The notes under the pieces were generated by a model. That model saw only the letters and a program-made list of their open reading frames with translations, did no database searches and was not told the DNA's origin. A DNA stretch of 64,000 nucleotides from Deferrisomatales bacterium (GTDB lineage: Bacteria > Desulfobacterota > Deferrisomatia > Deferrisomatales > JACRMM01), in assembly GCA_033551855.1 (NCBI GenBank), contig JAWSUI010000004.1, positions 2,673-66,672 on the forward strand, in the 5' to 3' direction. The position numbers and the translations under genes were made by a program. Of the stretch, positions 4,522 to 61,120 are shown piece by piece (position 1 is the first letter of the stretch; every line of letters begins with the position of its first letter).

Positions 4522-4605
4522 TGTGCTAGCGTTTTTGCCCTGTCCGGGCCCCCGAAGCTTTCTCAACCCCCGCCCTTTTCCCTCACTGCGGGCTCTCGAG
4601 GACAC

Positions 4606-6470: not shown

Positions 6471-7888
6471 AGATCCACTTCGGCACGGACGGCTGGCGCG
6501 GGGTGATGGCCCGGGACTTCACCTTCGCCAACGTGCGCCGCGTGACCGCGGCCATCGCCGCTTACCTGGAGGGGGAGGGCACGGCCGGTCGGGGGGTGGC
6601 GGTCGGGTGGGACCGGCGCCTCCTCTCGGACCGGTTCGCGGCGGAAGGCGCCGGGGTGCTCGCCGCCCGTGGGATCCCCGTGTGGCTGACCCCCCGCCCG
6701 GAGCCCACGCCCCTCCTGTCCTGGGCGGTGCGCCGCCGGGGGCTGGCGGCGGGCATCGTGATCACCGCCTCCCACAACCCTCCCGAGTGGAACGGCGTGA
6801 AGCTCAAGGAGCCCTTCGGCGGCGCAGCCCGCGAGTCGGTGAGCCGCCGGGTCGAGGAGCTCCTGGCGGAGCGGGGGCCGGGTGACGAGGTTCCGTGCCT
6901 CCCCCTGTCCGAGGCTCGGGTGCGTGGGCTGCTCCAAGACCTGGACCCCTGGGAGGGGTATCGGGAGGCCCTGGGCCGGCTGGTCGACTTCGATGCCTTG
7001 GGCCGGGCCGGGCTCACGGTCGCCGTGGATGCGATGCACGGGTGCGGCTCCCCGGGGCTTCGCCGCCTCCTGGAGGGGGCGGGCTGCCCGGTGGTGGAGC
7101 TCCGGGGGGAGTGGAACCCCGGCTTCGGCGGGGAGGCCCCCGAACCCCTGGAGTCGCGGCTGTCGGGACTCGCTGCCGCCGTGCGGGACCGAGGGTGTGC
7201 CCTGGGGTTGGCCAACGACGGCGACGCCGACCGGATCGCGGCAGTGGACGAGCGGGGGCGCTACTTCTCGCCCCAGCGGATCCTGGCGGTGCTCCTGCGC
7301 TACCTCCGGGAGGAGAAGGGGCTGCCCGGGGGGGTCGTGAAGGCCGTTTCGGCCACGTCACTCCTGGACCTCCTGGCCGCGCGGCACGGTCTGGAGGTCA
7401 CCCTCACCCCCATCGGGTTCAAGCACATCGGCGAGGCGATGCTGGGGCGGTCGGTCCTGATCGGCGGGGAGGAGAGCGGGGGGATCGGGATCCCGGCCCA
7501 CCTGCCGGAGCGCGACGGCCTGCTCAACGCCCTCCTCCTGACGGAGATCGTAGCCCGCACGGGCCGGGGTCTTCGGGCCTATCTGCAGGAGATCTTCGAC
7601 CAGGTGGGGTACCTCACGTACGATCGGGTGGATCTTCCCCTGCCGCCCGAGTCCGCCGCCGCGGTGCGGGAGAGGGTAGCCCGCCTGGAGCCCCCGCCGA
7701 ACCTGGCCGGTGGGAGGGTCGTGGAGGTGACGCGGCTCGACGGGACCCGCTTCCTGCGGGACGACGCTTCCTGGCTCCTGCTGCGCCCCTCGGGGACCGA
7801 GCCCGTCCTGCGCCTCTACGCCGAGGCCCGGAGTGAGGGCGAGGTCGCGGCCCTGCTCCGGGAGGGGAAGCGGATGGCAACCATCTGA
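6467..7888 (+). CDS. phosphoglucomutase/phosphomannomutase family protein
   Basis: [33 protein letters not shown] motifs; GTG overlaps the pdxA stop. Confidence 0.93.
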
Positions 7889-8048
7889 GGGTTGCGCGGC
7901 GTGGACTGCCCGTTGCGCGCGCCGGGCCGAGTGGGTCCGGCTTCAGGATCCCGCCGCGCCTTCCCCGTGGGAACGGAAGCCGGCAGTCCGGACGCCGCGA
8001 AAACCGAGACGCGACCTTCCGCGGGCAACCCGCAACGAGCAACCCACC

Positions 8049-26129: not shown

Positions 26130-26705
26130 TCAGTAGTTCTCCCCCAGCAGCTCGAAGTGTGCCTTGGGGTGCACGCAGGCGGGGCAGGCGTCCGGCGCCC
26201 CGGTGGCCTGGTGCAGGTAGCCGCAGTTTCGGCACCGCCAGGTCACGGCCTCGTCCCTCCGAAAGACCCGGCCGCCCGCGATGTTGGCCGCCAGCGCGCG
26301 GTAGCGCTTCTCGTGCTGGCGCTCGGCCACGCAGACCGCGTCGAACGTCCTGGCCACGTCGTCGAACCCCTCCTCCCGAGCCACTCTCGCGAACCCCGGG
26401 TAGAGGTCGACGTGCTCGTGGCGCTCGCCGTCCGCCGCCGCGAGCAGGTTCTCCGAGGTGGTGCCGATCGTCCCGGCCGGGAAGGCCGCCGTCACCTCCA
26501 CCTCCCCGCCTTCCAGGAACTTGAAGAAGCGCTTGGCGTGCTCCTTCTCCTGGTCCGCGGTCTCCTCGAAGATCGCGGCGATCTGCACGAACCCGTCCTT
26601 CTTGGCCTGCCCGGCGAAGTAGGTGTACCGGTTGCGGGCCTGGGACTCCCCCGCAAACGCCTTGAGCAGATTCTTCTCCGTCTCGGTGCCCTTCCGACTC
26701 TTCAT
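26130..26705 (-). CDS. rbr: rubrerythrin
   Basis: AFAGESQARNRY, EKEHAK, ERQHE, C-terminal CRNCGY...CPAC rubredoxin-like domain. Confidence 0.94.
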   Translation of the reverse strand: MKSRKGTETEKNLLKAFAGESQARNRYTYFAGQAKKDGFVQIAAIFEETADQEKEHAKRFFKFLEGGEVEVTAAFPAGTIGTTSENLLAAADGERHEHVDLYPGFARVAREEGFDDVARTFDAVCVAERQHEKRYRALAANIAGGRVFRRDEAVTWRCRNCGYLHQATGAPDACPACVHPKAHFELLGENY

Positions 26706-26849
26706 CGTGAATCCTCCCTCGAAGCGGTTCCAGCTGAGCTCCCACGGTAACACGAAACCACCCGACCTCGGAATCCCTCCTAGCCAAAGGCGCCCGTCCA
26801 CAGGTGGTTCCCGCCGCAGAGGGTTCCCGAGGCTCACGGCGAGTCCTGG

Positions 26850-29320: not shown

Positions 29321-29410
29321 CCGCCGCGCCCCGGCTTCTCCCCGCGGCGTGGTATGCTGCCGCCCGTTGCACAGGTTCGGGCGTTGTGTTGCGAGGTATC
29401 GGGTCCGCGC

Positions 29411-29824
29411 ATGGCATCGCCGCCGCCGCCCCTCCCGGGCTGGGACGAGTCTTGTACGGTCGGGGTCCCGGAGCTGGACGACCAGCACCGAAGGCTCTTC
29501 CGCGCCCTGGAGGGGTTGCGGGCGTCCCTGCAGGGACGCGGGTCGGCCCTCGAGGGGCTGGAGGGGCTCCTTCGGGACTGCGCGGAGCACTTCGCCGACG
29601 AGGAGCAGCTCCTGGCGCGGGTGGGCTACCCCCGCGCGGTCCAGCAGCGGGTGCAGCACCGGGTGTTCCTGGGGAGGGTCCGCCGCCTGGCGGAAGGGGT
29701 GCGCGGGGGCACGGAGGCCGTGGGTGAGGGAACCGTCGGGGGGCTGGCGGCCTGGTTCCGCGGGCACGTCTGCGGCCTCGACCGCGAGTACGGGGAGTGG
29801 CTGCGGGGCCGGGGTAGGGAGTAG
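29411..29824 (+). CDS. bacteriohemerythrin-like protein
   Basis: VGVPELDDQH, HFADEE, WFRGHVCGLD motifs. Confidence 0.8.
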   Translation: MASPPPPLPGWDESCTVGVPELDDQHRRLFRALEGLRASLQGRGSALEGLEGLLRDCAEHFADEEQLLARVGYPRAVQQRVQHRVFLGRVRRLAEGVRGGTEAVGEGTVGGLAAWFRGHVCGLDREYGEWLRGRGRE

Positions 29825-48565: not shown

Positions 48566-50746
48566 TCAGGGTCCGATGTCTCCGCGCCCTTCCCGGCGGA
48601 TCGCCGCCGCGATTCCGGCGGCCCGCTCCCGACCGGGCCATGCCTCGAGCGGTACCGCGACGCGCCGGCGCCAGTTGGGGTGCTCGTCGAGGGTTCCGGG
48701 GAGGTTCTGCATCTCCCGCTCGCCGAGGAGGTCGTCCAGGTTCGCCACGAACAGGGCCGAGGGTGCGCGCGCCAGGTAGGCGTGCACGGCCGCGGCCAGG
48801 TCGTCGAGGCGGGTCTCGGGCACCTCGTGGGCGGGCTCGAGACCCGGGGGAAGCAGGTCCTCCTCCCGCAGGGCCTCCAGGAGACGGAGGCGGTCCCACC
48901 GCCGGGCCTCTGCGTCGCCCGCCTGGGCCTCGGGGGAGGGGTACTGCCCCAGGGTGGATTTGACCTCCAGGTCCCGCCCCAGCCAGAAGCCGTCCACCGT
49001 CGGCAGGTCGTGGGTGGCCACCGAGACGAGTGCCTGGCGCGGGTATTCCGCCGGCTGGCGGAACCGGCCGTCCCCGTGCTTCTCGAAGACGAGGAGTCGA
49101 TACCCGTAGAAGCCCGACGTCTCGAGGACCTGCCGCACCTCGGGGGGCACGGTCCCCAGGTCCTCCCCCACCACGAGGCACCGGTGGTCGTTCCCCAGGC
49201 ACCGCAGCACCGCCAGGAGCTCGTCGGCCCGGTCGGTGACGTAGGCTCCCCGGCTGGCCGGCAGCCCGCCGGGGATCCAGAACAGCCGCCACAGGGCCAG
49301 CACGTGGTCGATGCGCAGCGCCTCCCCCCGCCTGGCGTTGTGGGCGAGGGTGTCGCGGAAGAAGGCCCACCCCGTCCGCCTGTGCCGCTCCGGGACCGCG
49401 GGGGGGACTCCCCAGCTTTGCCCCAGCAGGCTGAAGGGGTCGGGAGGGGCCCCGGCCGAAGCCCCGAGGGCCAGTACGTCCTGGTAGACCCAGGCGTCCG
49501 CGCCGCAGGGGTCCACCCCCAGGGCAAGGTCCAGGTACAGCCCCAGGGCCATCCCGAGCTCCTGCGCTCGGGCCCGGCACCGGGCGAGCTGTGTCTCGGC
49601 GACCCACTGGAGCCAGGCGTGGAATCCCACCGCCTCCTGGGCTTCGCCGGCGAAGGCGCGCACCGCCGGGGAGCCGGGCCGGCGGAACCCCTCGGGCCAC
49701 TCGGTCCACGGAAGGGTCGTCCCCTTCGGGGTGGCCAAGTGCTCCCGGAGGGCGCAGAACACGGCGAAGTCTTCGAGCGCCCGGCCCTGGGCAGCCCGCC
49801 AGGCGGCGAAGGCGGCTCTGCGACCCACCGCTTCCCCCTCCTGGAACTCGCGGTAGCACACCTCCAGGGCGCGGCGCTTGAGGAGCCAAGCGCCGCGATG
49901 GTCCACCAGCGGGGAGGCGCGGAGCCGGGCGAGCTCCGCTTGGACCCCGTCCGACTCCAGGAGCTCCTGCACGGGGGGAAGCCGGGCCTCGGGCAGGCAG
50001 TCCACGGCGACGTGGAGGGGGTTGAGCCACAGGCGGCTGGAGGGGTAGTACGGGCTCACCCCGTGCGGCGGTTCGTTGAAGAGGGCGTGGAGCGGCAGCA
50101 GCCCCACGAGGTCGGCCCCGAGACCGGCTGCCCACTCGACGGCGCGGGCCAGGTCCTCGAAGTCGCCGACCCCCCAGTTCCTCGCCGAGCGCACTCCGTA
50201 GAGGGGAAGGCTCACCCCCCAGAGGCGTCCTCCCCGTGCCAGGGCGGGGGGCTCGTAGCCCCTGGCCGGGGCCACCACGCACAGCAGCCGCGCGGTCTCC
50301 CGGGCGCACGGGCTCGCCAGGTCGAGCTCCAGGTCGTGGAGGCCGGCCGGCAGGGGTGATGCGGGTTCCAGGAGCAGGGTGAGCCGGCCCGGCCACCCGG
50401 GAGCCGGCTCGGTCCCCGTGCGCCGGAGCGGGACGACGCGGCCCCCGAGGCGAGCGGACGCCTGCCAGCTCTCCTCCCCGGACGGCACGGTCACCCGGAG
50501 CACCTGGGGCGCCTCCTCCCGCAACACGGCCACCGGTTCCGCCGCACACCGGGATGGGGCCGTCTCCCGCAGGGCCAGCTCGCCCTCCAGGGCCTCGGCG
50601 CCCGCAACGTCGAGACCCATGGCGCGAAGCACCGCCCGCAGGGTGTCGGGGTCGGCCCGGTGGTACCGGCCCCAGATGTCGTGGTAGCCCGGAAGGACTC
50701 CACAGACCTCGGCCAGACGGACGAGGAGGGCCTCCTCCCGGTCCAT
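48566..50746 (-). CDS. malQ: 4-alpha-glucanotransferase (amylomaltase)
   Basis: NWGVGDF, SPYYPSSR, YLDLALG, RIDHVL, GEDLGTV, THDLPT, NLPGT. Confidence 0.93.
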   Translation of the reverse strand: MDREEALLVRLAEVCGVLPGYHDIWGRYHRADPDTLRAVLRAMGLDVAGAEALEGELALRETAPSRCAAEPVAVLREEAPQVLRVTVPSGEESWQASARLGGRVVPLRRTGTEPAPGWPGRLTLLLEPASPLPAGLHDLELDLASPCARETARLLCVVAPARGYEPPALARGGRLWGVSLPLYGVRSARNWGVGDFEDLARAVEWAAGLGADLVGLLPLHALFNEPPHGVSPYYPSSRLWLNPLHVAVDCLPEARLPPVQELLESDGVQAELARLRASPLVDHRGAWLLKRRALEVCYREFQEGEAVGRRAAFAAWRAAQGRALEDFAVFCALREHLATPKGTTLPWTEWPEGFRRPGSPAVRAFAGEAQEAVGFHAWLQWVAETQLARCRARAQELGMALGLYLDLALGVDPCGADAWVYQDVLALGASAGAPPDPFSLLGQSWGVPPAVPERHRRTGWAFFRDTLAHNARRGEALRIDHVLALWRLFWIPGGLPASRGAYVTDRADELLAVLRCLGNDHRCLVVGEDLGTVPPEVRQVLETSGFYGYRLLVFEKHGDGRFRQPAEYPRQALVSVATHDLPTVDGFWLGRDLEVKSTLGQYPSPEAQAGDAEARRWDRLRLLEALREEDLLPPGLEPAHEVPETRLDDLAAAVHAYLARAPSALFVANLDDLLGEREMQNLPGTLDEHPNWRRRVAVPLEAWPGRERAAGIAAAIRREGRGDIGP

Positions 50747-51177
50747 CACGCTGCGAAGACCAGCTTCATGCCGAAGGCGCGACACCCGTCGAGCTCGGCG
50801 TCCTGCACCCCCTGGCGGGCCCGGAGGGGCTCGGCCACCATTCGCATCCCGCACTCCCTCTCCAGACGGAGGGCCACGATGTGGGGCCCCTCCCCGCTCC
50901 AGCCGTAGGACCCGAAGGCCGCCGCGAGCTTGCCCCGGACGCCGCTGGCAGCGAGCCGCTCGAGAAACGACGTGATCTCGGGCACCTCTTTGGCTTCCTG
51001 GGTCGGGGTCCCCACGGCCAGCGCGTCGTAGGAGTCGAGCACGGACGGGTCGGGGAGGTCCTCCGCCCGGAAGAGGTCCGCCTCTCCGCCCATGGCGCGC
51101 ACGCCCTCGCCGATGGTCCGGGCCATCCTTTCCGTCTCCCCCGTCCGGGTGCTGTACACCACCGCCACCTTTCTCAT
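50746..51177 (-). CDS. flavodoxin-domain protein
   Basis: VVYSTRTGETERMA, GTPT, FGSYGWSGE. Confidence 0.85.
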   Translation of the reverse strand: MRKVAVVYSTRTGETERMARTIGEGVRAMGGEADLFRAEDLPDPSVLDSYDALAVGTPTQEAKEVPEITSFLERLAASGVRGKLAAAFGSYGWSGEGPHIVALRLERECGMRMVAEPLRARQGVQDAELDGCRAFGMKLVFAA

Positions 51178-52385
51178 GGTTCCCTCCCTCCGTGCACGCC
51201 CGCCGCCCCACTCCCGCCGAGCCACGCCTGAACCATGAAGGACGCGACGGTGCCTTCCCCGACGGCGGCCGTGATCTGTTTGGCGCTGCCCGCCCGCACG
51301 TCGCCTGCGGCGTACACCCTCGGCAACGAGGTGGCCAGGGTGACCGGGTCCGTGCGGACGAATCCCGTCTCGTCCAGGTCCAGGGCGCCGGCCAGGAAGC
51401 GGCTGTTGGGCACCAGCCCGATAAACACGAACACACCGTCGCACGGGATCTCTCGGTGCTCCCCCGACGAGAGGTCCGTCACCTCCACCGCCTCGACCCC
51501 CTCTTCACCGAGGATCCGGGTCACCCGCTGGGACAGGAGGACCTCCACCGGGTCCAGGCCTCCGACCCGCTCCTGGAGGACGGCGCTGGCCGTGAGGCGG
51601 TCCAGGACCTGCACCAGGGTGATGCGGGCGGCGAACTCGGCGAGGTGAACCGTCTCCTGGAGGGCGGAGTTGCCCCCACCCACGACCACCACGTGCTTTC
51701 CCCGGAAGAAGGGTGCGTCACAGGTGGCGCAGAAGCTGACCCCCCGTCCGATGAGCCGGTCCTCCCCGGGAACCCCGATCCGGCGGTAGACCGAGCCCGT
51801 CGCCACGATGACCCCGCGGGCCCGGTGGGTTACCCCGTTGGACTCCACCTCCAGGAGCCCACCCCCCGGGCGCAGGGCGGAGACCTCCTCGAAGGTGCGC
51901 ACCTCCGCGCCGAAGCGCTGCGCCTGCCGGAGGATGCGTTCGGTGAGCTCGGCCCCGGATACCGGGTCGGGGAAGCCGGGGTAGTTCTCGATCTGCCCGG
52001 TCACGGCGGCCTGCCCCCCGGGCAGCCCCCTCTCGAGCACGAGGGTACGCAGGCGCTCCCGGGCAGTGTAGATGGCGGCCGTGAGGCCGGCCGGCCCCCC
52101 GCCCACGATGATCACGTCGAAGAGGTCCAGGGCCTCCGGAACGGGAACTCCCAGGGCCTCTGCCAGCTCCGCGTCGGAGGGGTCTGACAGGAACCGCCCG
52201 TCCACCTCCACGGCGGGCACGTCCAGGCTGCCCTCCCCGGCGGCGCGCAGGCGCTCGGCTCCCGCAACGTCCTCCTCGGGATCCACCTCCCGATACGCCC
52301 GCCCTGCCGCCTGGAGGAATCGCCGCACCCGGTGACACTTCGGGCACCAGGGCACCACATAGAGGACCGCCGGGTCCTTCCCCAT
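51174..52385 (-). CDS. trxB: thioredoxin reductase with fused N-terminal glutaredoxin (NrdH-like) domain
   Basis: WCPKC glutaredoxin motif, GGGPAG, IENYPGF, CATCD, GGGNSA, AAGDVR. Confidence 0.88.
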   Translation of the reverse strand: MGKDPAVLYVVPWCPKCHRVRRFLQAAGRAYREVDPEEDVAGAERLRAAGEGSLDVPAVEVDGRFLSDPSDAELAEALGVPVPEALDLFDVIIVGGGPAGLTAAIYTARERLRTLVLERGLPGGQAAVTGQIENYPGFPDPVSGAELTERILRQAQRFGAEVRTFEEVSALRPGGGLLEVESNGVTHRARGVIVATGSVYRRIGVPGEDRLIGRGVSFCATCDAPFFRGKHVVVVGGGNSALQETVHLAEFAARITLVQVLDRLTASAVLQERVGGLDPVEVLLSQRVTRILGEEGVEAVEVTDLSSGEHREIPCDGVFVFIGLVPNSRFLAGALDLDETGFVRTDPVTLATSLPRVYAAGDVRAGSAKQITAAVGEGTVASFMVQAWLGGSGAAGVHGGREP

Positions 52386-52605
52386 CGCTTTCCTTCCGGC
52401 TGCGCACGGTCCTCAAGCTACCAGATCGCCGGGCCTGCGAAAACCCCGGTCCCGGGCTTCGAGCGCCCGCACCCGGGGGCGTCCCCAAGACGCGCGCCGA
52501 TGGGGCGGCCGCCGCCGGCGCCCGGGATTTCCTGGGTTGACAGGGAAAGCTCTTGTGGCAACCTCCCCAAAACAGGTCCAAATGGGAGCCGGGAGGTGGG
52601 AGACG

Positions 52606-53679
52606 ATGGAGAACACGCATCCGGTGCGGTTCGCGGTGATCGCGGTCTTCTTGGTGCTGGGGGCGGTCGCAGCCCTGGCGTCCGCCCGCCAGGGGGGCGA
52701 GGACTACCCTGGGGGGCGGTTCCTGGCCACGGGGACGTGGCTGCGGGCGCACCTGAACGACCCGAATCTGGTCGTGGTCGATGTGCGTACCGACCGGGAC
52801 TTCGACGGCCGCGCCATCCCGGGCGCGGTTCGGATGCCCTGGACGCTCTTCCGCTACGACGACCCGTCGCGTGGCCACGGGGACATCTTCGTGGGCACCG
52901 TGCGGGCCCAGGAGATCCTGGGGGCGCACGGCATCGCCCGCACGGACACCGTGGTGCTGTACGACACGGCAAAGAAGGACGGCGGGGCGCTCTCGTCCTA
53001 TGTCTTCTGGGTCCTCGATCTCCTGGGCCACCGGGAGATGAAGGTCTTGGAGCGGGGCCTCGACGGGTGGCTCGCGGCGGGGGGCGAGACGGCCCCCGAG
53101 CCGCGTACCCCCGAGCCGCTTCTCTATCAGGCACCGGCCACCGAGATTCGACGGAGCCGCATGGTGGACGCGGCGTTCGTGCAGGCGCGGCTCGGCGATC
53201 CCTACTACCAGATCCTGGACGTGCGTTCCCGGGAGGAGTACCTGGGCGAGCGACCCAGTGAGGGTCTCGGCGGGGAGCCCCTGCGCCTGGGGCACATCCC
53301 CACGGCGGTCAACGTGGATTACCGGCTCCACTGGGCCGATTCCGAGACCAAGGCCCTCATGAGCTACGGGGAGCTCCAGGAGCTGTACCGGGGCCTCGAC
53401 CCCTCGAAGACCGTCATCACCTACTGCCATTCGGGCCGCCGCGCGTCGTTCAGCTACTTCGTGCTCCGACTCATGGGGCTCGAGGACGTGGCCATGTACG
53501 AGGCGTCGTGGTTCGAGTGGGGGAACCCCCGGACCTTTTTCCCCATCGAGCTCGAGGAGCGCGTCCTGAGCGGAGAGCGCCCGGGAACACCCCTTCGGAA
53601 AGCCGAGGCCGGCCGGTCCGCCCCGCCCCGGCCCGAGGCCGCCCCCGTCCGGGGCGGGTACGTCTCGTGCGGCGGGTGA
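52606..53679 (+). CDS. exported tandem-domain rhodanese / sulfurtransferase
   Basis: Signal peptide, VDVR, GHIPTA, active-site YCHSGRRA, YEASWFEWG; Pro/Ala linker ending GGYVSCGG. Confidence 0.88.
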   Translation: MENTHPVRFAVIAVFLVLGAVAALASARQGGEDYPGGRFLATGTWLRAHLNDPNLVVVDVRTDRDFDGRAIPGAVRMPWTLFRYDDPSRGHGDIFVGTVRAQEILGAHGIARTDTVVLYDTAKKDGGALSSYVFWVLDLLGHREMKVLERGLDGWLAAGGETAPEPRTPEPLLYQAPATEIRRSRMVDAAFVQARLGDPYYQILDVRSREEYLGERPSEGLGGEPLRLGHIPTAVNVDYRLHWADSETKALMSYGELQELYRGLDPSKTVITYCHSGRRASFSYFVLRLMGLEDVAMYEASWFEWGNPRTFFPIELEERVLSGERPGTPLRKAEAGRSAPPRPEAAPVRGGYVSCGG

Positions 53680-53687
53680 GGAGAGCC

Positions 53688-54230
53688 ATGCACACGCCAC
53701 GGCCTGACAACGTGTACTGGGGGTGGGTGCCTTCGGCCTTTGCCCTGGCCGGGATCGTCCTGTTCGTCTTCGCCACCTTCGGGCCACCTGCGTCGTCGAG
53801 TGGGTTCGTCACGTCCTTGAAGGGCGCGCTGTCCCAACTCGCCCCGGACTACGCCGAGTCTCACGAGCACTACCGCATGATGCCCGGCCCGGGATCGTGG
53901 CTCATGGCCTTCGTCCTCGGCATGGCCATGGGCGGGTTCGTCGGGGGCCGAACGCTTCGAAAGCCGATGCGTGACGTGCCGGTCCTCTGGGAGAGGCGCT
54001 TCGGGCAGGACCGGGGAGGCCGGGTGAAGCGGTACCTGGCGTGTTTTGCCGGGGGGTTCCTGATCCTCTTCGGCGCCCGCCTGGCGGGCGGCTGCACCCT
54101 GGGGCTCTTCATCTCCGGTTCCACCCAGCTCGCCGTGAGCGGGCTGTACTTCGGGGTGGTGATCTTCGCCGTGGCCATGCTGGTCGCGCGCCTCGTCTAC
54201 GGGAGGACGGTCCGGGAGGTGTCGAGATGA
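53688..54230 (+). CDS. YeeE/YedE family sulfur-compound transporter half
   Basis: Hydrophobic, 'FGARLAGGCTLG' motif. Confidence 0.85.
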   Translation: MHTPRPDNVYWGWVPSAFALAGIVLFVFATFGPPASSSGFVTSLKGALSQLAPDYAESHEHYRMMPGPGSWLMAFVLGMAMGGFVGGRTLRKPMRDVPVLWERRFGQDRGGRVKRYLACFAGGFLILFGARLAGGCTLGLFISGSTQLAVSGLYFGVVIFAVAMLVARLVYGRTVREVSR

Positions 54231-54766
54231 CGCAGGTCTGGCTGGGACTCTTCTCGGGACTCGCGTTCGGGTTCGTGATCCAACGGGCGGGGGCCACCGA
54301 TCCGGATCAGATGGCCCGCGGACACCTGATGCTCGACGGCCGTCTGCCGCGGTTCATGGTGCTGGCCGTGGCTCTGGCGGCGGTGGGCCTCCTGGGCCTC
54401 CAGTCGGCCGGCGTGGGGCGCACGATGGTCCTGCCCGTGAGCCTGGTGGCCACCGGCCTGGGGGCCGTGATCTTCGGGGTCGGTTGGGGCCTTTCCGGGT
54501 ACTGCCCCGGCACCTGCTGGGCCGCCGCCGGCGAAGGGCGGATGGACGCACTCTTCGCCCTCCTGGGGGGCTTTGCCGGGACCGCGGTGTTTGCCCACTT
54601 CCACGAGGTGCTGGTGCCGGCCCTGTACCTGCCCACGAGCCTCGGTCCCCTCACCCTGGCCGACTGGCTGGGGTCTCCAGCCCTCGCCACGGGCGTTCTG
54701 GCGGTGGGATTCGGCCTGTGTGCCTGGCTGATGGGCTATGTCTGGGGCCGCGGTGAGGAGGGCTGA
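54227..54766 (+). CDS. YeeE/YedE family sulfur-compound transporter half
   Basis: 'GLAFGFVIQR', 'IFGVGWGLSGYCPGT' motif; ATGA overlap. Confidence 0.87.
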   Translation: MTQVWLGLFSGLAFGFVIQRAGATDPDQMARGHLMLDGRLPRFMVLAVALAAVGLLGLQSAGVGRTMVLPVSLVATGLGAVIFGVGWGLSGYCPGTCWAAAGEGRMDALFALLGGFAGTAVFAHFHEVLVPALYLPTSLGPLTLADWLGSPALATGVLAVGFGLCAWLMGYVWGRGEEG

Positions 54767-55373
54767 CGCAGCCCTCGGCGCCGCTTTGCTGGTTTGTGCG
54801 TTCGGCGTCAGCCTGGCGGCGGGGTGCTCGCGGGAACCGGGAGAGGTGCCCGTCTCCGTGCCCCGGGGTTACGTTCCCCGGCTCGAGCTCTCCTTCGAGG
54901 GGCACCAGTACGGCTTCGGGCCCTTCGTGGGGTACTACTTCCGGCCGGACGAACCAGCCGATCTCACCCGCCTGCGCTTCGTCTGCTACAACGAGCGGGG
55001 CTTCTACGCGTCGGATGCCCCCGTGAACGCCCTGCTCTACGAGGGGGAGGCGGTGCTGGCGCGGCTGCCCGAGGGGCCCCAGGCGTTGCTCCGGGGCCCC
55101 GGGGACCGGATCGAGCCCCTGTTCTTCGATGAGGCGCCCCCGGAATGGCTCGCCACTCGGCCGGAGCCCCAGGAGGAGTTCGTGCACTTCCACTCGGCCT
55201 ACGACGCCGTCGGCCCGGCCCTGGTGGGGTACTGGCTCCGCCACGTCGCGGTGAGGGGATTCACCTATGACATGGGGGGGCGCGTGGGTCCGGGGGGGCC
55301 CTTGTACCATGCGGTGCCGCCGGGGCCGGACCTGGAGTTCCCCCGCATCATCGAGTTCGACCGGGGGCCGTGA
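54738..55373 (+). CDS. hypothetical lipoprotein
   Basis: Lipobox-like LAAG-C, aromatic-rich body, FVHFHSAYD; start uncertain. Confidence 0.65.
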   Translation: MSGAAVRRADAALGAALLVCAFGVSLAAGCSREPGEVPVSVPRGYVPRLELSFEGHQYGFGPFVGYYFRPDEPADLTRLRFVCYNERGFYASDAPVNALLYEGEAVLARLPEGPQALLRGPGDRIEPLFFDEAPPEWLATRPEPQEEFVHFHSAYDAVGPALVGYWLRHVAVRGFTYDMGGRVGPGGPLYHAVPPGPDLEFPRIIEFDRGP

Positions 55374-55414
55374 ACCCCGCCCCGTTCTTCTCCGAGACGG
55401 GGGGTCCAGGTTGG

Positions 55415-55499
55415 TCACGATCCGCCACCAGGTGTTCGGGCGGGGCCGGGGAGCGGAGGGGCTCCCCGGCCCCGGCACGTGTCAGGCGATGGATCCCGG
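55415..55499. mobile_element. internally deleted family C element (85 bp, inverted)
   Basis: Reverse complement starts ccgggatccatcgcctgacacgtgcc and ends cccgaacacctggtggcggatcgtga. Confidence 0.65.
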
Positions 55500-55551
55500 C
55501 GCACCTTGCCTCTTGCGCCGGTGACCCGTCTCCAGGACACTGGCCGCGCCC

Positions 55552-57363
55552 ATGACTGCCCAGACCCTCCTCACCTTCGGTATCCTGGCGGCCGCCATCG
55601 TTCTCTTTCTGAGCGAACGGGTCCGGGCCGATCTGGTGGCCCTGTGGGTGGTGGCCGCCCTCGGGCTCACCGGTGTCCTGAGCCCCCAGCAGGCCTTTTC
55701 CGGTTTCGGCAGCCCGGCCGTGGCCATCATCGTCTCCATCTTCGTGCTTGCCGAGGGGCTGCGGGTCACGGGCCTCACGGATCGGGTCGGCGCGCTTCTT
55801 CTCCGCCTCGGGGGACGGGGCGAGGGCCGGCTCGCCTCGGCGGTCATGCTCTCGGGGGCGTTCCTCGCCCTGTTCATGAACAACACTGCCGCCGCTTCGC
55901 TCCTCCTCCCCGCCGCCACCAGCGCGGGACGGTGGGCAGGCGTCTCGGTCTCGCGGCTGCTCATGCCCCTGGCGTTCGCCACGATTCTCGGGGGCACGGC
56001 GACCCTTCTCACGACCAGCAACGTGGTGGTGAGCGACATCCTGCGGGAGCGGGGCTACCGGGGGTACGGGCTCCTGGACTTCCTCGCCGTGGGCTTGCCC
56101 CTGGTAGCCGTGGGCGTGGCCTACATGGCGGTGCTCGGGGTGCGGCTGCTGCCCCGGCACTCCCCGGGCGAGGCCGAGCGGACCGGACCGCAGGGGGACT
56201 TGCTGCAGGTCTACCGCCTTGGCGAGCGGCTGTTCCGCGTCCGCGTCGAGCCGGGTTCCTCCCTTGACGGCAAGTCCCTGGCCGCGTGCAGCTTTCGGGA
56301 GCTCTGCGGGGCCACCGTCGTGGCCGTGGAACGAGGCGGTCGCGTATCCCTCTCCCCGGAGCCGGGGGAGGTGCTCCGAGGGGGCGATGTCCTTCTCCTG
56401 GAGGGGAAGCAGGAGGAGCTCGAGCAGATGGACGGCGAGCATTGCCTCCTCTCCCTGGAGGCGGCCGCACCCCCGGCGGAACACCTGGAGTCCTCGACCG
56501 TGGCGGTGGTGGAGGCCGTGCTCTCCCCCCGGTCCGCCCTGATCGGCCAGACCCTGGCGGGGGCACACTTCCGGGAGAAGTACGGCATGACCGTGCTGGC
56601 CCTCTGGCGGGCGGGCAAGCCCACCCGCACCGGCCTCCGGGACCTGGAGCTGCGCTTCGGCGACGCCCTCCTGCTCCAGGGCCCCCGGGAGCGGATCCCG
56701 GTGCTGCGGTCGGACCCGGACCTGATCCTCCTGGAATCGGGGGTGGCCGAGCCCCGCAGGCCCGAGAAGGCCCCCCTGGCCCTGCTGATCATGGGCGCGA
56801 CGCTGCTCTGCCTGCTCCTGGGGTGGCCGTCACCGGCCCTGGCGGTGTTGGCCGGGGCCCTGTGCATGATCCTGGCGCGGGTCCTCCCGGCCGACCTGGC
56901 GTACCAGGCCATCGAGTGGCGCGTGATCTTCCTGATGGCGGGGATGTTGCCGATCTCCACGGCCATGGTGGAGAGCGGCGCTGCACAATTGTTGGCGGAG
57001 GGGATCGTGCGGGGTCTCGGGGGCGCCGGCCCCCTGGCAGTGGCAATGGGGGCGTTCGGCCTGTCGGCCCTCCTAGTGCAGACCATGAGCGGGGTTGCGG
57101 TGGCGGCGGTGGTGGCCCCCGTGGCCATCCTCGCGGCGGACACCCTGGGGCTGGACCCTCGGGCGATGGGCATGGCGGTGGTCCTGGGAAGCTCCATGGC
57201 CTTCGTGACTCCCCTCGGCCACCCGGTCAACCTCCTGGTCATGGGCCCCGGAGGCTATCGGTTTCGTGACTTCCTCAAGGTGGGGCTCCCCCTGACCCTG
57301 CTGCTGTTCGCCGTGGTGGCGGCCCTGCTGCCCGTCGTCTGGCCCCTGCGCGGGGCACCTTGA
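55552..57363 (+). CDS. SLC13/CitMHS family permease with two TrkA-C domains
   Basis: FMNNTAA, LGGTATLL, central RCK-C domains, TPLGHPVNLLVMGPGGYRFRDF. Confidence 0.9.
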   Translation: MTAQTLLTFGILAAAIVLFLSERVRADLVALWVVAALGLTGVLSPQQAFSGFGSPAVAIIVSIFVLAEGLRVTGLTDRVGALLLRLGGRGEGRLASAVMLSGAFLALFMNNTAAASLLLPAATSAGRWAGVSVSRLLMPLAFATILGGTATLLTTSNVVVSDILRERGYRGYGLLDFLAVGLPLVAVGVAYMAVLGVRLLPRHSPGEAERTGPQGDLLQVYRLGERLFRVRVEPGSSLDGKSLAACSFRELCGATVVAVERGGRVSLSPEPGEVLRGGDVLLLEGKQEELEQMDGEHCLLSLEAAAPPAEHLESSTVAVVEAVLSPRSALIGQTLAGAHFREKYGMTVLALWRAGKPTRTGLRDLELRFGDALLLQGPRERIPVLRSDPDLILLESGVAEPRRPEKAPLALLIMGATLLCLLLGWPSPALAVLAGALCMILARVLPADLAYQAIEWRVIFLMAGMLPISTAMVESGAAQLLAEGIVRGLGGAGPLAVAMGAFGLSALLVQTMSGVAVAAVVAPVAILAADTLGLDPRAMGMAVVLGSSMAFVTPLGHPVNLLVMGPGGYRFRDFLKVGLPLTLLLFAVVAALLPVVWPLRGAP

Positions 57364-57451: not shown

Positions 57452-59167
57452 TCACACGATCCAGAGTCCTCGGGTGAACCGGGGGTCAGGCACCTCGTCC
57501 ACCGCCAGGTGGCCGAACTCCTCCTCGAGAAGCCAGAAGCACCCGCCCACGAATTCCCGGAGGTGGCCCTCTTCCGAGGGGGTGAGGTCGCCGGCCGCCT
57601 TCGCCCACTCCACTGCCGTGTCGTCGAGGCCGGGCTTGACCCGGCGAGGGGGGGTCTCCGAGGCCCACACCCGGGAGAGCCCCTGCCGTACATCGTTCCG
57701 GGGGATGGGAGCGAAGCGGAAGGAACGCTCCAGGGCGGCATTCACGAGCGCCGTCAGGAACACCGTGCTGCCTTTGAGGTTCTCGGTCTCGACTCCGACC
57801 CGGGCCTCCTTGAGGTCGCCCAGGTGCAGCTCCACGATGCTGAGCAGGAAACGCCCCAGAAAGTCCGCCTGGTCTACGGTCCTCTCGGCCCGCCGCACTT
57901 CCCCGAGGGCCCGGAAGGGTCTGTAGGGCGGAGTCTCTCCCTCCCCGGCGTACCAGAGGGGATGGACCCGGAGCAGTCCCTCCAGCACCTCGGGCAGAGG
58001 GGAATCCAGGAAGAGAAGGCGCTCCTTGTGGCCCTGGGGCCAACCCTTTTCGAACAGGCCCCGGGCCCTGCCCCTCAGCGCCCGGATGGGGCCCCAGCCG
58101 GCCTGGAAGAGGTGCTGGAGCCAGTGTTCCTCCAGGGCCCGGGCGGCCGCTGCCTCGTCGAGATCGCACAGGGACTCCAGGCCGACGGAGACATAGGAGC
58201 TCACCTTTCGCAGCGCCGCCTGGAAGGAGCCCAGGTCGTCCAGGTCGAGCCGATCCGCGACCGCCACCTTGTTGGTGAGATAGGCGAGATCGGACCAGAG
58301 GCCGTCCAGGGTCGGTCCCGGGGGGACGTGCCGCAGGGCGTGCAGGAAGACGTCGGGTGTCGCGTCGGGAAGGGCGACGGGATACCGGGGGGGGGCCGCC
58401 GGCGGCTCGTCCGAGTCCCGCTTGGGGTCCCTGGGGCGACGGGGCAGCTCGTCGGCGGTCGACGCCCGGAGGGGGGCGTAGACCTCCAGGGCCTCCTCCC
58501 GCGGAGGAAATCCTCGAAGGGCCAGCCGCCGCTGGCGCTCCTGGTACTCCGCTTCCTCGAGCTCCGAGTCCAGGTCGCGCATGAGCGCCTCCACCAAGCG
58601 GGCATAGCGGTCGGGATCCGTATCGCGGACGATTCGCAACAGGTCTCGCACCAACGGCTCGGCCTCGGGGGACGTGGCAATGTAGTACCGGCCCTCCAGG
58701 GTGAAGGGTGCTCTGCCCGGCAGCTCCTGAAAGGGATCCCGCTCCTCGTCCGCGAGGTGCACGGCGGCGACGCTGCCCAAGAGGAGCACCCACGTGGCGA
58801 GGTCCAGGCGCTGGAGCCATCGGCCCAGGGCTTCCTCCCCGCAGGAGTGGAGGCGCCCGAGCCACGGGAGGACGCGCTCCCTGCGGATCCGATCCCCCTT
58901 CCAGAGCTCCAGGTCCAGGACGAGCTCCACCTGTTCGGTGCGCGCGTGGCGCAGCACGTCGGGGACGTTGTCCGCGTCGAGCTCCTTGAGGGTGAAGTAG
59001 AGCTCCTCGGGGGGCATGAGACCGACCACGGCTCCGAGGTTGCTCGAAACCAGGAGGCGGTCTTCGCGTTCGTGCCCGCGCACCGAGAGCACCGCGTCGA
59101 TCTCCCGCCGCAGCGGCGTTGGCGTGGGCGAGGGGAAAACGGGTCGGGGCCGGGGGTGGTGAGGCAT
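57452..59167 (-). CDS. DUF6178-like hypothetical protein
   Basis: 'LDLELWKGD', 'GFPPREEALEVY', 'LTNKVAVAD'; long ORF with coding-like codon usage; start uncertain. Confidence 0.65.
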   Translation of the reverse strand: MPHHPRPRPVFPSPTPTPLRREIDAVLSVRGHEREDRLLVSSNLGAVVGLMPPEELYFTLKELDADNVPDVLRHARTEQVELVLDLELWKGDRIRRERVLPWLGRLHSCGEEALGRWLQRLDLATWVLLLGSVAAVHLADEERDPFQELPGRAPFTLEGRYYIATSPEAEPLVRDLLRIVRDTDPDRYARLVEALMRDLDSELEEAEYQERQRRLALRGFPPREEALEVYAPLRASTADELPRRPRDPKRDSDEPPAAPPRYPVALPDATPDVFLHALRHVPPGPTLDGLWSDLAYLTNKVAVADRLDLDDLGSFQAALRKVSSYVSVGLESLCDLDEAAAARALEEHWLQHLFQAGWGPIRALRGRARGLFEKGWPQGHKERLLFLDSPLPEVLEGLLRVHPLWYAGEGETPPYRPFRALGEVRRAERTVDQADFLGRFLLSIVELHLGDLKEARVGVETENLKGSTVFLTALVNAALERSFRFAPIPRNDVRQGLSRVWASETPPRRVKPGLDDTAVEWAKAAGDLTPSEEGHLREFVGGCFWLLEEEFGHLAVDEVPDPRFTRGLWIV

Positions 59168-59255
59168 GGAGCGGGCCTCCGTCGGATGGCGGGTTGGGCG
59201 GGGGGCGCCGCAAGGGTAGCACGGCTTCCGCGACTCCTTCCAGGCGCGGAAGCCT

Positions 59256-59488
59256 CCCGGAGTCCCCGCCTGACACGTGGTCGGAGCCGGGGAGCCCTCG
59301 GCTTCGCCCCGCAATCCGCGGCCTCTGGCCTCCCACTCACCCGCTTCCCTCATCTCCCTCCCCCATCGGGGGAGGGCCGGGGTGGGGGCCTCCCACTCAT
59401 CCCGCTTCCCTAGTCTCCCTCCCCCATCGGGGGAGGGCCGGGGTGGGGGCCTCCCGGTCCCGCCCGAACAGTTGGTGGTGGATCTTGG
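59256..59488. mobile_element. family C element carrying an internal 60/61-bp tandem repeat
   Basis: Family C ends (cctgacacgtgg... / ...ggtggtggatcttgg); 59327-59455 is two copies of a unit with hairpin CCCTCCCCCATCGGGGGAGGG. Confidence 0.7.
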
Positions 59489-59593
59489 GCCTCCTGGAAG
59501 GTCCGTTGCGCAAGGGAACGGCAGAGCGCTGCGGTTGCGGGCAGGGAAGCCTGTTGCGTAGGATGGGTGCCGACCCCGGAGAGGAGGTGTGCG

Positions 59594-61120
59594 GTGATCC
59601 CAGGGAGGCGACTAGGTGCGTCAACCGTTCTAGCGCTCGCGGCGGCGTTCGGTTTCCTGCTGGAAACCGGCTCGGCCGGCGCATCGCCGGCCCCGAGTCT
59701 GGAGGGTCGGGTCGCGGAGCGGCGGCTGGCCAACGGCCTGACTGTCCTCGTGCTCCCCCGTCCGGCTTCCCCGACGGTCAGTCTGCAGATGACCTTCCGG
59801 GTGGGGGGGGTGGACGAGCCGGCAGGCCAGACGGGTACCGCACACCTGCTGGAGCACATGCTCTTCAAAGGAACCCGGACCCTGGGCACGGTGGACTGGA
59901 AGCGCGAGGAGCCCCTCCTGGCCCGGATCGAGGCCGTCGGGCGGGAGCTGGACGCCGAGCGCCGGCGGGGCCGTGCAGCGGACGCCTCCCGGCTGGAGGA
60001 GCTCGCCGCCCGGCTGGAGGAGCTCCAGCGGGATCACCGGCCGCTGGTGGTGAAGGACGAAATCGACGCCATCTACGCGCGCCACGGTGCCGTGGGGTTC
60101 AACGCGTCCACGAGCGCCGACCTCACGAGCTACACCGTGAGCCTGCCCTCGGACCGGCTCGAGCTCTGGGCCGCCATCGAGGCGGCGCGCATGGGGGACC
60201 CCGTGCTGCGGGAGTACTACGTGGAGCGGGAGGTCGTGCAGGAGGAGCGGGCCCAGCGATTCGGGGGGGACCCGGGCGGCCGCCTCTACGAAGCCCTCCT
60301 GTCCGCGGCCTTTGCCGCGCACCCCTATGGAAATCCGGTGATCGGGTGGCCCTCGGATCTCGCCGTGCTCGACATCGAAGACACGCATTCCTTCTATCGG
60401 CGGTACTACGGGCCCGACAACTGCGTGATCGCCGCCGTGGGGGACGTGGAGCCCGACGGGTTCTTCGCCCTGGTGGAACGGTATTTCGGGGGGATTCCGG
60501 CGCGGGGAGTCGGCCGGGCGCACCGGACCGAGGAGCCGCCCCAGACGGGACCCAGGCGGGTGGAAGTCACCTTCGATGCCGAGCCGCGCTTGGCGGTGGG
60601 GTTCCACAAGCCCACCCTGCCGGAGCGGGACGACTACGTCTTCGACGTCATCGCGGGTGTGCTGTCCGACGGGCGCAGCTCCCGCCTGGTGCGCGAGCTC
60701 GTCGACCGCAAGCGCGTGGCCGCCGCGGTTCGGGCCGTGAACGGGATTCCCGGCGCTCGCTACCCGAACCTTTTTGCCGTGTTCCTGACCCCCCTCGCCC
60801 ACGTGACCCCCGAAGAGGCCGAGGAGGCCCTGCTCGAGGAGCTCCGGCGGCTGGCGGAGGAGCCGCCTTCCCCCGAGGAGATCTCCCGGGTCGTCCGCCG
60901 GCTCGAGGCCGCCCGGGTGCGGTCGCTGGTGTCCAATGCGGCCCTCGCGCGGCAGTTGGCGTACTTCCAGGCGGTGGCGGGGGACTGGCGCTACCTGGAG
61001 GAGCACGCGGCGGTCTTGGCCGGAGTGACGCCCGAGGAGGTGGCTGCGGCGGCCCGGACCTACCTGACGGCGGCGAACCGCACCGTGGCCGTTCTCCGGG
61101 GCGAAGGGGGCGGCTCGTGA
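59594..61120 (+). CDS. M16 (pitrilysin) family zinc peptidase, catalytic subunit
   Basis: AHLLEHMLFKG inverted zinc motif, FNASTS, HPYGNPVIGW; GAGGAGG RBS. Confidence 0.92.
   Translation: MIPGRRLGASTVLALAAAFGFLLETGSAGASPAPSLEGRVAERRLANGLTVLVLPRPASPTVSLQMTFRVGGVDEPAGQTGTAHLLEHMLFKGTRTLGTVDWKREEPLLARIEAVGRELDAERRRGRAADASRLEELAARLEELQRDHRPLVVKDEIDAIYARHGAVGFNASTSADLTSYTVSLPSDRLELWAAIEAARMGDPVLREYYVEREVVQEERAQRFGGDPGGRLYEALLSAAFAAHPYGNPVIGWPSDLAVLDIEDTHSFYRRYYGPDNCVIAAVGDVEPDGFFALVERYFGGIPARGVGRAHRTEEPPQTGPRRVEVTFDAEPRLAVGFHKPTLPERDDYVFDVIAGVLSDGRSSRLVRELVDRKRVAAAVRAVNGIPGARYPNLFAVFLTPLAHVTPEEAEEALLEELRRLAEEPPSPEEISRVVRRLEAARVRSLVSNAALARQLAYFQAVAGDWRYLEEHAAVLAGVTPEEVAAAARTYLTAANRTVAVLRGEGGGS

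Follow-up and report, generated by a model that had tools for sequence, protein, structure and literature searches.

A tandem rhodanese with an invariant C-terminal cysteine arm, encoded with a split YeeE/YedE channel and an orphan lipoprotein: a candidate sulfane-sulfur relay

A stretch of 64,000 nucleotides from a Deferrisomatales bacterium (assembly GCA_033551855.1, contig JAWSUI010000004.1, positions 2,673 to 66,672; the whole stretch is called the window below) contains a cassette of four genes, which encode a rhodanese ending in a cysteine arm, a PmpA-like and a PmpB-like half of a split YeeE/YedE channel, and a lipoprotein. We propose with moderate confidence that this cassette forms a periplasm-to-cytoplasm relay for sulfane sulfur, in which the terminal cysteine of the rhodanese would act in the manner of the SoxY carrier arm. 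The domains belong to known families; three features are new, namely an invariant cysteine arm that is tethered to an enzyme, the strict association of this arm with a split YeeE channel, and the orphan lipoprotein. How zero-valent sulfur that is captured or made outside the cytoplasm enters the cell is acknowledged as a gap in the text of PMC11582611, and here a carrier arm, the enzyme that could load it and a cysteine-lined channel are united by one strict genetic linkage. The cassette is found in hundreds of genomes, including those of the cultured Desulfosarcina alkanivorans PL12 and Desulfatitalea alkaliphila, and since arm, enzyme and channel are linked in cultured carriers, the proposed hand-off is directly testable with few point mutants.

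The rhodanese and its terminal cysteine

The protein encoded by the first gene matches the rhodanese family PF00581 in two stretches with 108.3 bits (cut-off 22.2), which identifies it as a tandem-domain rhodanese, and a profile built from its family alignment (A1) retrieves solved tandem thiosulfate sulfurtransferases with E values of 5e-45 to 1e-42, YnjE being a weak match in the PDB. None of the 33 solved relatives aligns past about position 325 of the 364-position profile, so that the tail is left uncovered in all of them. In the N-terminal domain an invariant aspartate (D120) occupies the position of the cysteine, and in the C-terminal domain the loop C274-H-S-G-R-R is invariant or nearly so; judged by these residues, the N-terminal domain is predicted to be inactive and the C-terminal domain active. 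The score against the SseA equivalog (NCBIfam NF008557) is 63.6 bits where 250 are required, and the SoxY domain PF13501 has no match in the protein at E<=0.01. At the N-terminus a single hydrophobic segment (aa 9-27) is followed by A-S-A, giving a signal-like region of aa 1-27. An earlier note, made from the letters of the window alone, had described a signal-like tandem rhodanese with the catalytic loop CHSGRRA and the ending GGYVSCGG directly before the stop codon, and all of these features are indeed present.

Conservation of the terminal CGG had been named beforehand as the check on which the idea of a carrier arm should stand, and the arm passes it. A search for homologues of the rhodanese returned 659 at E<=1e-3, the best 120 of which were used for the statistics of the tail, and a separate genomic set comprised 80 loci (L001-L080) from species-representative genomes. 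The 120 homologues, each 356-393 aa long, end in SCGG in 118 cases, with one SCGD and one SCGE, and SCGG followed by the stop codon closes the rhodanese gene in 80 of the 80 loci, a regularity far above chance expectation. Nothing follows the terminal motif in any of the 80 genomic copies or the 120 listed homologues, and the search found no longer, fused forms of the rhodanese, which is weak evidence. Across 28 diverse rhodaneses, G351, Y352, S354, C355, G356 and G357 are invariant, and the linker that precedes them cannot be aligned. The linker had been described as 25-30 aa long and rich in proline, alanine and arginine; it is present, but somewhat longer. In the window's protein it extends over 36 aa beyond the rhodanese core, and in the 115 homologues (of 120) whose linker could be delimited by pattern on both sides its length is 35-53 aa (median 41). 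Within the family it is rich in G/A/S/T/P (62%) and not always in Pro/Ala/Arg. Cysteine is absent from it. Exactly two cysteines, the catalytic and the terminal one, occur in 109 of the 120 homologues, and additional cysteines lie mostly in the signal segment.

At the level of nucleotides the tail is far from uniform. The 80 loci contain 58 distinct 24-nt tails with synonymous variation at each position: tyrosine is encoded by TAC in 50 and TAT in 30, serine by four different codons, cysteine by TGC in 54 and TGT in 26, and the last glycine by all four of its codons. This synonymous variation indicates that selection acts on the peptide. In an AlphaFold2 (AF2) model of the rhodanese monomer, residues 331-357 have values of the predicted local distance difference test (pLDDT) of 37-49, and a tail predicted to be disordered in this way fits a freely swinging arm.

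An exhaustive HMMER search over 1.84 billion representatives showed the rhodanese family to be tight, with scores falling from 459 to 280 bits before generic multi-rhodanese proteins take over; a CGG ending was found in 7 of the best 150 representatives of this search, several being fragments. Apart from the family itself, five distant exported tandem rhodaneses end in cysteine after an extension (P0123, P0141, P0173, P0230 and P0256, with the endings ..VPACR, ..GTRC, ..APTC, ..GGGC and ..SSGC). The number of cysteine endings among distant rhodaneses is near that expected by chance, and a terminal tail cysteine may be a wider theme. In two further entries the first two thirds of the rhodanese run on into another protein of the cassette, the end of the lipoprotein in P0127 and the start of half A in P0128; both are probably artefacts of assembly or deletion and not natural fusions.

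The four-gene cassette, its channel halves and its lipoprotein

Searching the 80 loci with the window's proteins (tblastn) shows that the unit consists of the rhodanese with its arm, the PmpA-like half (half A), the PmpB-like half (half B) and the lipoprotein. Half A lies directly downstream of the rhodanese gene in 79 of the 80 loci, and the contig of the remaining one ends 5 nt past the rhodanese stop. The distance from the rhodanese stop to half A is 2-121 nt, apart from one locus (L010) with a value of -3 and hence a 4-nt overlap, and half B comes next wherever DNA remains. The co-occurrence with a YeeE/YedE pair that had been put forward as a test is thus borne out, and it is mirrored at the level of whole genomes: in a sample of 401 genomes of the phylum the rhodanese family was found in 14, the half A subtype in 13 and the lipoprotein in 14, with all three tested parts in 13 genomes and none of them in 386. 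The remaining two genomes have, respectively, the rhodanese at the end of a contig and a lipoprotein fragment.

The lipoprotein, which the earlier note had mentioned as a gene that follows the pair, is more than that, being the fourth core member and the representative of an orphan family. A homologue is found in 72 of the 80 loci; in 45 of these it immediately follows half B, and in 27 it immediately precedes the rhodanese, a switch of position that amounts to one change on the rhodanese tree. Seven of the eight loci that lack it are truncated, their contigs ending on the side where it would be expected, and the eighth (L027) has a weak fragment only. In contrast, two genes that the same note had drawn into the module do not belong to it. 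Homologues of the SLC13 permease were found in 0 of the 80 loci within 6 kb. The glutaredoxin-thioredoxin-reductase fusion (Grx-TrxR), which had been suggested as a dedicated reductant, is adjacent in only 2 of the 80 loci (L001 and L002, the closest relatives), with a weak distant match in L034, and should rather be counted among the many redox-stress neighbours. All-against-all clustering of the flanking open reading frames (ORFs) of the 80 loci revealed no fifth conserved gene.

By their labels, the carriers of the cassette, which include many bacteria that respire sulfur or metals, belong to Desulfobacterales, Desulfobulbales, Desulfuromonadales/Geobacter/Pelobacter, Desulfatiglandales and Deferrisomatales. 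The genome to which the window belongs has no DsrA above the cut-off and no SoxY, and it contains three TusA-like genes, which indicates that the cassette is not tied to dissimilatory sulfate reduction. One copy appears to be decaying: in a complete genome (L093, G102:C1:869500-876500; 1226-1948 and 4553-4960) an IS21-like element, composed of a 544-aa transposase and a 271-aa helper, has cut the rhodanese gene in two at about residue 243, and half B is matched over residues 92-170 only.

In the window, where the genome has a G+C content of about 71%, the four genes are co-directional and closely packed on the forward strand between positions 52606 and 55373 (Table 1). Between half A and half B, stop and start overlap by 4 nt (ATGA), and a gap of 178 nt separates the lipoprotein gene from the SLC13 permease. 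The remaining genes of the window are housekeeping genes, and no dissimilatory sulfur genes were found anywhere in it. A scan of positions 52300-55700 gave 0 promoter-like sites and terminator-like matches that fall within genes, and is uninformative. The sequencing data listed for positions 52500-55400 comprise one DNA run and none of RNA. Further away lie a DUF6178 protein and an M16 peptidase downstream of the cassette (57452-59353, minus strand, and 59567-61120, plus strand), and a rubrerythrin and a hemerythrin about 25 kb upstream (26130-26837, minus strand, and 29354-29824, plus strand).

Table 1. Features of the cassette and of its immediate neighbours, in window coordinates.
Feature	Position	Strand	Basis or detail
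Tandem rhodanese with C-terminal Cys arm, 357 aa	52606..53679	+	PF00581, two stretches
Codon of catalytic Cys274 (loop CHSGRRA)	53425..53427	+	C274, R278 and R279 invariant in 28 sequences
Low-complexity tether, aa 316-350	53551..53655	+	unalignable in rhodanese alignment A1
Terminal motif G-Y-V-S-C-G-G plus stop	53656..53679	+	Cys355 codon 53668-53670; stop 53677-53679
Half A, split YeeE/YedE (PmpA/YedE1-like), 180 aa	53688..54230	+	PF04143; Cys136 codon 54093-54095
Half B (PmpB/YedE2-like), 179 aa	54227..54766	+	PF04143 and DUF6691; Cys93 codon 54503-54505
Orphan lipoprotein, 211 aa, lipobox LAAGC	54738..55373	+	lipobox
CitMHS/SLC13-type permease with two TrkA_C domains	55552..57363	+	Pfam
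Glutaredoxin-thioredoxin-reductase (Grx-TrxR) fusion, divergent	51174..52385	-	Pfam and NCBIfam
Flavodoxin, divergent upstream	50746-51180		

The two channel halves had been recognised in the earlier note by their motifs GGCTLG and GYCPGT, an assignment confirmed by PF04143 and by alignments. Half A scores 37.9 bits against PF04143 (cut-off 27) over profile positions 177-309, that is the C-terminal half, and half B scores 47.7 bits over positions 18-143, the N-terminal half, together with 33.4 bits for DUF6691. The cassette therefore encodes a split-type YeeE, in which two adjacent half-size proteins cover the C- and N-terminal halves. Invariant in half A (alignment A3) are RLAGGCTLG with Cys136 and an N-terminal, family-specific FGPPASSSGF, and in half B (alignment A4) GYCPGT with Cys93. 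Cys136 aligns with the GGC near residue 293 of the YeeE of Spirochaeta thermophila (6leo) and Cys93 with the GGC near residue 91, so that each half carries one conserved cysteine at the positions of TsuA Cys91/Cys293. The TsuA equivalogs NF052577/NF041049 are not reached, the best score being 39.9 bits against 400. Li et al. (PMC11582611) showed that PmpB is equivalent to the N-terminal and PmpA to the C-terminal half of YeeE, and that their single cysteines are the counterparts of the essential Cys91/Cys293. A split YedE1E2 is reported in PMC10812762 to import zero-valent sulfur or polysulfide, to require both cysteines, to lower reactive oxygen species and not to export, and the full-length YedE3 did not accelerate polysulfide uptake. 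A prediction of the complex of half A, half B and the mature rhodanese, made without controls, gave scores of 0.12 and 0.02, where the mark is 0.32, and counts neither way on binding.

A second split YeeE pair is present in the genome of the window, on contig C6 (L091, G000:C6:63500-72500; 4534-5052 and 6541-8364, both on the minus strand), and near it lies an SLC13 and TrkA_C permease that is 31% identical to the permease of the window (55552-57363). Since this second pair is also close to an SLC13 permease, the pairing may be a lineage habit, though it is absent from the 80 other loci.

The lipoprotein family has at least 575 homologues, and among the 120 listed every source name is 'hypothetical'. 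No credible Pfam match was obtained for any of 28 members, no NCBIfam match for the protein and no sequence match in the PDB (best E 0.31 in a profile search). Its AF2 model is confident (pLDDT 93.5, predicted template modelling score 0.83); comparison of the fold gave at best E 0.68 with Foldseek and Z 4.2 in an exhaustive search with VIA-align, and such weak matches are no proof of a new fold. A search of the ESM Atlas with the lipoprotein returned unnamed clusters only. Invariant residues are H150, H152, H169, H191, M179, W137, W166, E206 and D208, and C83 is nearly invariant. According to alignment and model, the four invariant histidines and the nearly invariant cysteine sit on beta strands, and the arrangement of H-x-H on one strand with further histidines on adjacent strands suggests a site for a metal or an anion, a metal being likely. 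A family of this size with a confident model, no fold match and such a predicted site is of interest in its own right.

The proposed relay, its genomic setting and competing explanations

Rhodaneses form a persulfide on their catalytic cysteine. In the relay that we propose, the exported rhodanese would take sulfur from thiosulfate or polysulfide as a persulfide of Cys274 and would pass it to Cys355, which is the third residue from the free C-terminus and is borne on a flexible tether of about 40 residues. The loaded arm would then reach the periplasmic mouth of a heterodimeric PmpA/PmpB-like channel, where the sulfur could be taken over first by the membrane-embedded Cys93 of half B and then by Cys136 of half A, from which a cytoplasmic acceptor would receive it. 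The lipoprotein with its histidine cluster would be an obligatory periplasmic helper, either a mobiliser dependent on substrate or metal or a docking scaffold.

The genomic setting offers a view on the purpose. Neighbours within 2 kb were annotated (189 ORFs of >=170 aa and 110 ORFs of 90-169 aa), complemented by a tblastn scan. By tblastn, 14 of the 80 loci have a heavy-metal P-type ATPase within 6 kb, confirmed by Pfam in 10 of them; eight of the 14 share the strand of the cassette, most of them directly flanking it, and three of the HMA type are divergent upstream. In two loci (L007, 7647-10472, plus strand; L014, tblastn match 2634-4760) a CopB-like P1B ATPase is fused in frame to half B. 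This pump, which has a CPH motif, DKTGT and a His-rich N-terminus, is joined to half B via a low-complexity stretch of about 100 aa rich in His/Asp/Gly. Both metagenome-assembled genomes were obtained in a single study and the two pumps have 96% identity, so the fusion probably arose in one event; it implies a cytoplasmic C-terminus for half B. A multicopper oxidase lies between half B and the pump in L011 and L041. The genome of the window contains 5 P-type ATPases in 4.24 Mb, and the adjacency observed in 17.5% of the loci compares with about 1.5% of 13-kb windows expected by chance, which is a rough estimate. Mapped on the rhodanese tree, ATPase adjacency takes 11 changes, and supported branches force at least 9 of these; it therefore arose repeatedly, with the proviso that the absences include truncated contigs.

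Furthermore, by our own tally genes of the oxidative or thiol stress response occur within 2 kb in 23 of the 80 loci. They encode DJ-1/PfpI (L006, L009, L011, L012, L024, L056), desulfoferrodoxin (L034, L038, L062, L074), AhpC (L034, L038), MsrAB (L051, L078), SOD (L012, L075), OsmC (L079), SufBD with an ABC ATPase (L059, L074), glutathione-reductase-like flavoproteins (L006, L015), nitroreductases (L028, L064, L068), Usp (L013, L026, L062) and the Grx-TrxR fusion (L001, L002). CsoR/ArsR and CopZ were not found among the annotated neighbours of the 80 loci. Taken together, the copper ATPases and the oxidative-stress neighbours suggest that the cassette works in a setting of stress defence, and they point to an unexplored link between sulfane-sulfur import and copper/oxidant defence in anaerobes of sulfidic, metal-rich habitats. 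Judging from these neighbourhoods, the cassette would most likely serve, when copper or oxidants stress the cell, to raise protective sulfane sulfur in the cytoplasm or to supply Fe-S repair. In some loci, ORFs that have no Pfam match at E<=1e-12 lie between the lipoprotein and the CopB-like pump (L034:8804-9628, L038:8853-9620) or directly after the lipoprotein (L029:4999-7557); these may be further accessory parts.

A bolder version of the relay is possible, and we put it forward tentatively: sulfur would cross the envelope without ever being a free solute, as the self-loaded, tethered cysteine would thread into the split YeeE channel and hand its persulfide straight to a membrane-embedded cysteine, assisted by a His-cluster lipoprotein of new fold, with import coupled to copper and oxidant defence. 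Such a coupling of sulfane-sulfur import to copper/oxidant stress would explain the repeated juxtaposition with CopA/CopB and the fusion. If this version is true, the cassette would be the first natural example of an enzyme and a swinging-arm carrier combined in a single chain that feeds a transporter, and it would provide a model for how protein-bound sulfur of the periplasm enters the cytoplasm.

Several observations weigh against the relay and ask for caution. The presence of sulfur on Cys355 and the contact of the arm with either the active site or the channel are what we infer from the anatomy, and export of the rhodanese is read from its N-terminal hydrophobic segment and an A-x-A motif only. 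No confident docking of the tail is seen in the AF2 monomer. The penultimate glycine is encoded by GGA in 69 of the 80 loci, which gives GGAGG before the stop (window 53671-53676); these letters may at the same time serve half A as its ribosome-binding site, in which case the Gly-Gly would be conserved partly for that reason. A TusA or DsrE acceptor was not found in or next to the cassette in the 80 loci, unlike in TsuA-TsuB. The relay model leaves the role of the lipoprotein unexplained, and a metal-centred reading accounts for the copper genes nearby just as well. Finally, the distribution of the cassette is patchy (14 of the 401 genomes of the phylum sample), the rhodanese being present in 1 of 3 other genomes of the window's family and there at a contig end, so that the cassette is best regarded as accessory.

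Among the alternatives, one concerns the rhodanese itself and is in our view unlikely. The terminal cysteine could be a resolving or regulatory residue of the enzyme and not a carrier to the channel, in that Cys355 would swing back and attack the persulfide of Cys274, so that sulfide is set free or a lid in the form of a di- or trisulfide arises. The enzyme would then be a periplasmic sulfurtransferase that cleaves thiosulfate or polysulfide or gates itself, and the channel would separately import the small sulfur solute that is made. High-Mr thioredoxin reductase and MerA provide examples of a C-terminal redox tail that reaches into an active site, and the rhodanese with its only two cysteines in one chain has a tether long enough to reach back. 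In addition, nothing computed shows a contact with the channel, and metabolic coupling of enzyme and transporter would account for the synteny equally well. However, the monomer model docks no tail on the active site either, a tether of about 40 residues far exceeds the reach needed for the enzyme's own active site, and a resolving cysteine needs neither the invariant G-Y-[VI]-S context nor a free Gly-Gly end. A disulfide in the periplasm would also need a reductant, and the cassette encodes none.

That the cassette serves mainly as a device of defence against copper, or thiophilic metals in general, is likewise improbable, although the neighbourhoods described above speak for it. Here the histidines of the lipoprotein and the cysteine arm would bind periplasmic copper, and the rhodanese persulfide would convert it to inert copper sulfide, possibly with sulfur supplied outward via the split channel, beside the CopA/CopB pumps and the multicopper oxidase. 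Speaking for it are the nearby pumps, the fusion to half B and the oxidase; the adjacency of the pumps recurs independently and far above the chance estimate, and the four invariant histidines and nearly invariant cysteine on the beta strands of the lipoprotein would suit it; moreover, reactive sulfur species are linked to copper stress in Acidithiobacillus in the account of PMC12455602. Against this stands that 66 of the 80 loci, including the window, have no pump nearby, with the reservation that many contigs are short, that HMA, CopC, CusF and cupredoxin domains were not found in any core protein, that the lipoprotein is not Met-rich and that the core enzymes belong to sulfur families. The split pair characterised in PMC10812762 is reported to import and not to export.

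Handling of selenium (or tellurium), with a seleno-persulfide on rhodanese and arm and YedE-type import, is very unlikely. YedE relatives are described as acting in selenium transport (PMC11582611), and NCBIfam gives weak matches of the halves to a selenium YedE and of the rhodanese to the selenite/tellurite protein ExtH and to a rhodanese-related selenoprotein, but these lie far under their cut-offs (ExtH 33.5 against 200 bits, selenium YedE 20-21 against 350), and no selenium gene is among the annotated neighbours. Scarcely credible at all is a non-functional ending, a by-product of gene-calling or of nucleotide constraints such as a ribosome-binding site or translational coupling, since, for all the closeness of half A to the stop and the frequent GGAGG, the tyrosine, serine and cysteine are invariant despite their varying codons (58 distinct tails in 80 loci), and the ribosome-binding site seen in the window lies past the rhodanese stop. 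Two further candidates for a Gly-Gly ending were set aside, namely a ThiS/MoaD-like thiocarboxylate, on the reasoning alone that ATP-dependent adenylation is unexpected in the periplasm, and the sorting signals GlyGly-CTERM and PEP-CTERM, which would have a transmembrane segment after the motif that is missing here.

Comparison with known systems

A full-text search, restricted to the main text of openly accessible papers, brought up no earlier account of the four-gene cassette or of a rhodanese that ends in a conserved Cys-Gly-Gly arm, and no report in the literature of a conserved terminal cysteine arm on periplasmic rhodaneses was found. The closest enzymes are exported sulfurtransferases with rhodanese domains that are thought to mobilise polysulfide or thiosulfate, among them Sud, PspE, YnjE, SbdP and the pRho of cable bacteria, and pRho genes are reported to be strongly expressed in Desulfobulbales (PMC13047784).

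Cysteine relays on mobile elements or within one chain occur elsewhere, in that DsrC/TusE have a mobile C-terminal cysteine arm and CstA combines several sulfur-relay cysteines in one polypeptide. These proteins are cytoplasmic, have different folds and show no link to a membrane channel.

On the side of the transporter, the nearest structural relatives of the halves are 6leo and 8j4c. The pair resembles YedE1E2/PmpAB in having two adjacent half-size genes in the order PmpA then PmpB with one conserved cysteine each. It differs in that the halves of the cassette have about 180 aa as compared with about 130 in the account of PMC11582611, that half A contains the extra FGPPASSSGF segment, and that the pair is tied to the rhodanese arm and the lipoprotein and not to operons of the ArsR/PDO type. 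TsuA-TsuB (YeeE-YeeD), as described in PMC13047784 and PMC11582611, shares with the cassette the combination of a channel of the YeeE family with a dedicated sulfur-binding partner that has a reactive cysteine. In contrast, the partner there is cytoplasmic and TusA-like, while that of the cassette is predicted to be the periplasmic rhodanese arm; the channel of the cassette is split, and the region of the first TsuA cysteine is not kept in half B, which has QRxGAT.

The comparison with SoxY, which the earlier note had drawn, holds for the motif and not for the domain. In both cases a flexible C-terminal stretch, periplasmic in SoxY and presumably so in the rhodanese, carries a single cysteine near its free end with glycines after it, and the rhodanese has an arm of the SoxY type in that S-C-G-G precedes the stop in 198 of 200 sequences, with the cysteine third from the end and disorder predicted for the tail. 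The exact motif of the SoxY arm is reportedly GGCGG, and that of the rhodanese stands in the context G-Y-[VI]-S-C-G-G. Furthermore, the rhodanese has neither the fold or domain of SoxY nor a SoxZ partner, and its arm sits on the enzyme itself via the low-complexity tether of about 40 residues; it is an analogue of SoxY, not a homologue. The swinging arm of SoxY is described as carrying sulfur intermediates covalently and visiting the active sites of its partners (PMC11237559), and the sulfur bound to SoxYZ in the periplasm is stated to enter the cytoplasm 'by unknown means', with passage through a YeeE-like SoxT having been proposed (PMC11582611). The cassette described here would fill this gap between SoxYZ and the cytoplasm in a fused form, with the arm on the enzyme that would load it and the split channel encoded directly behind.

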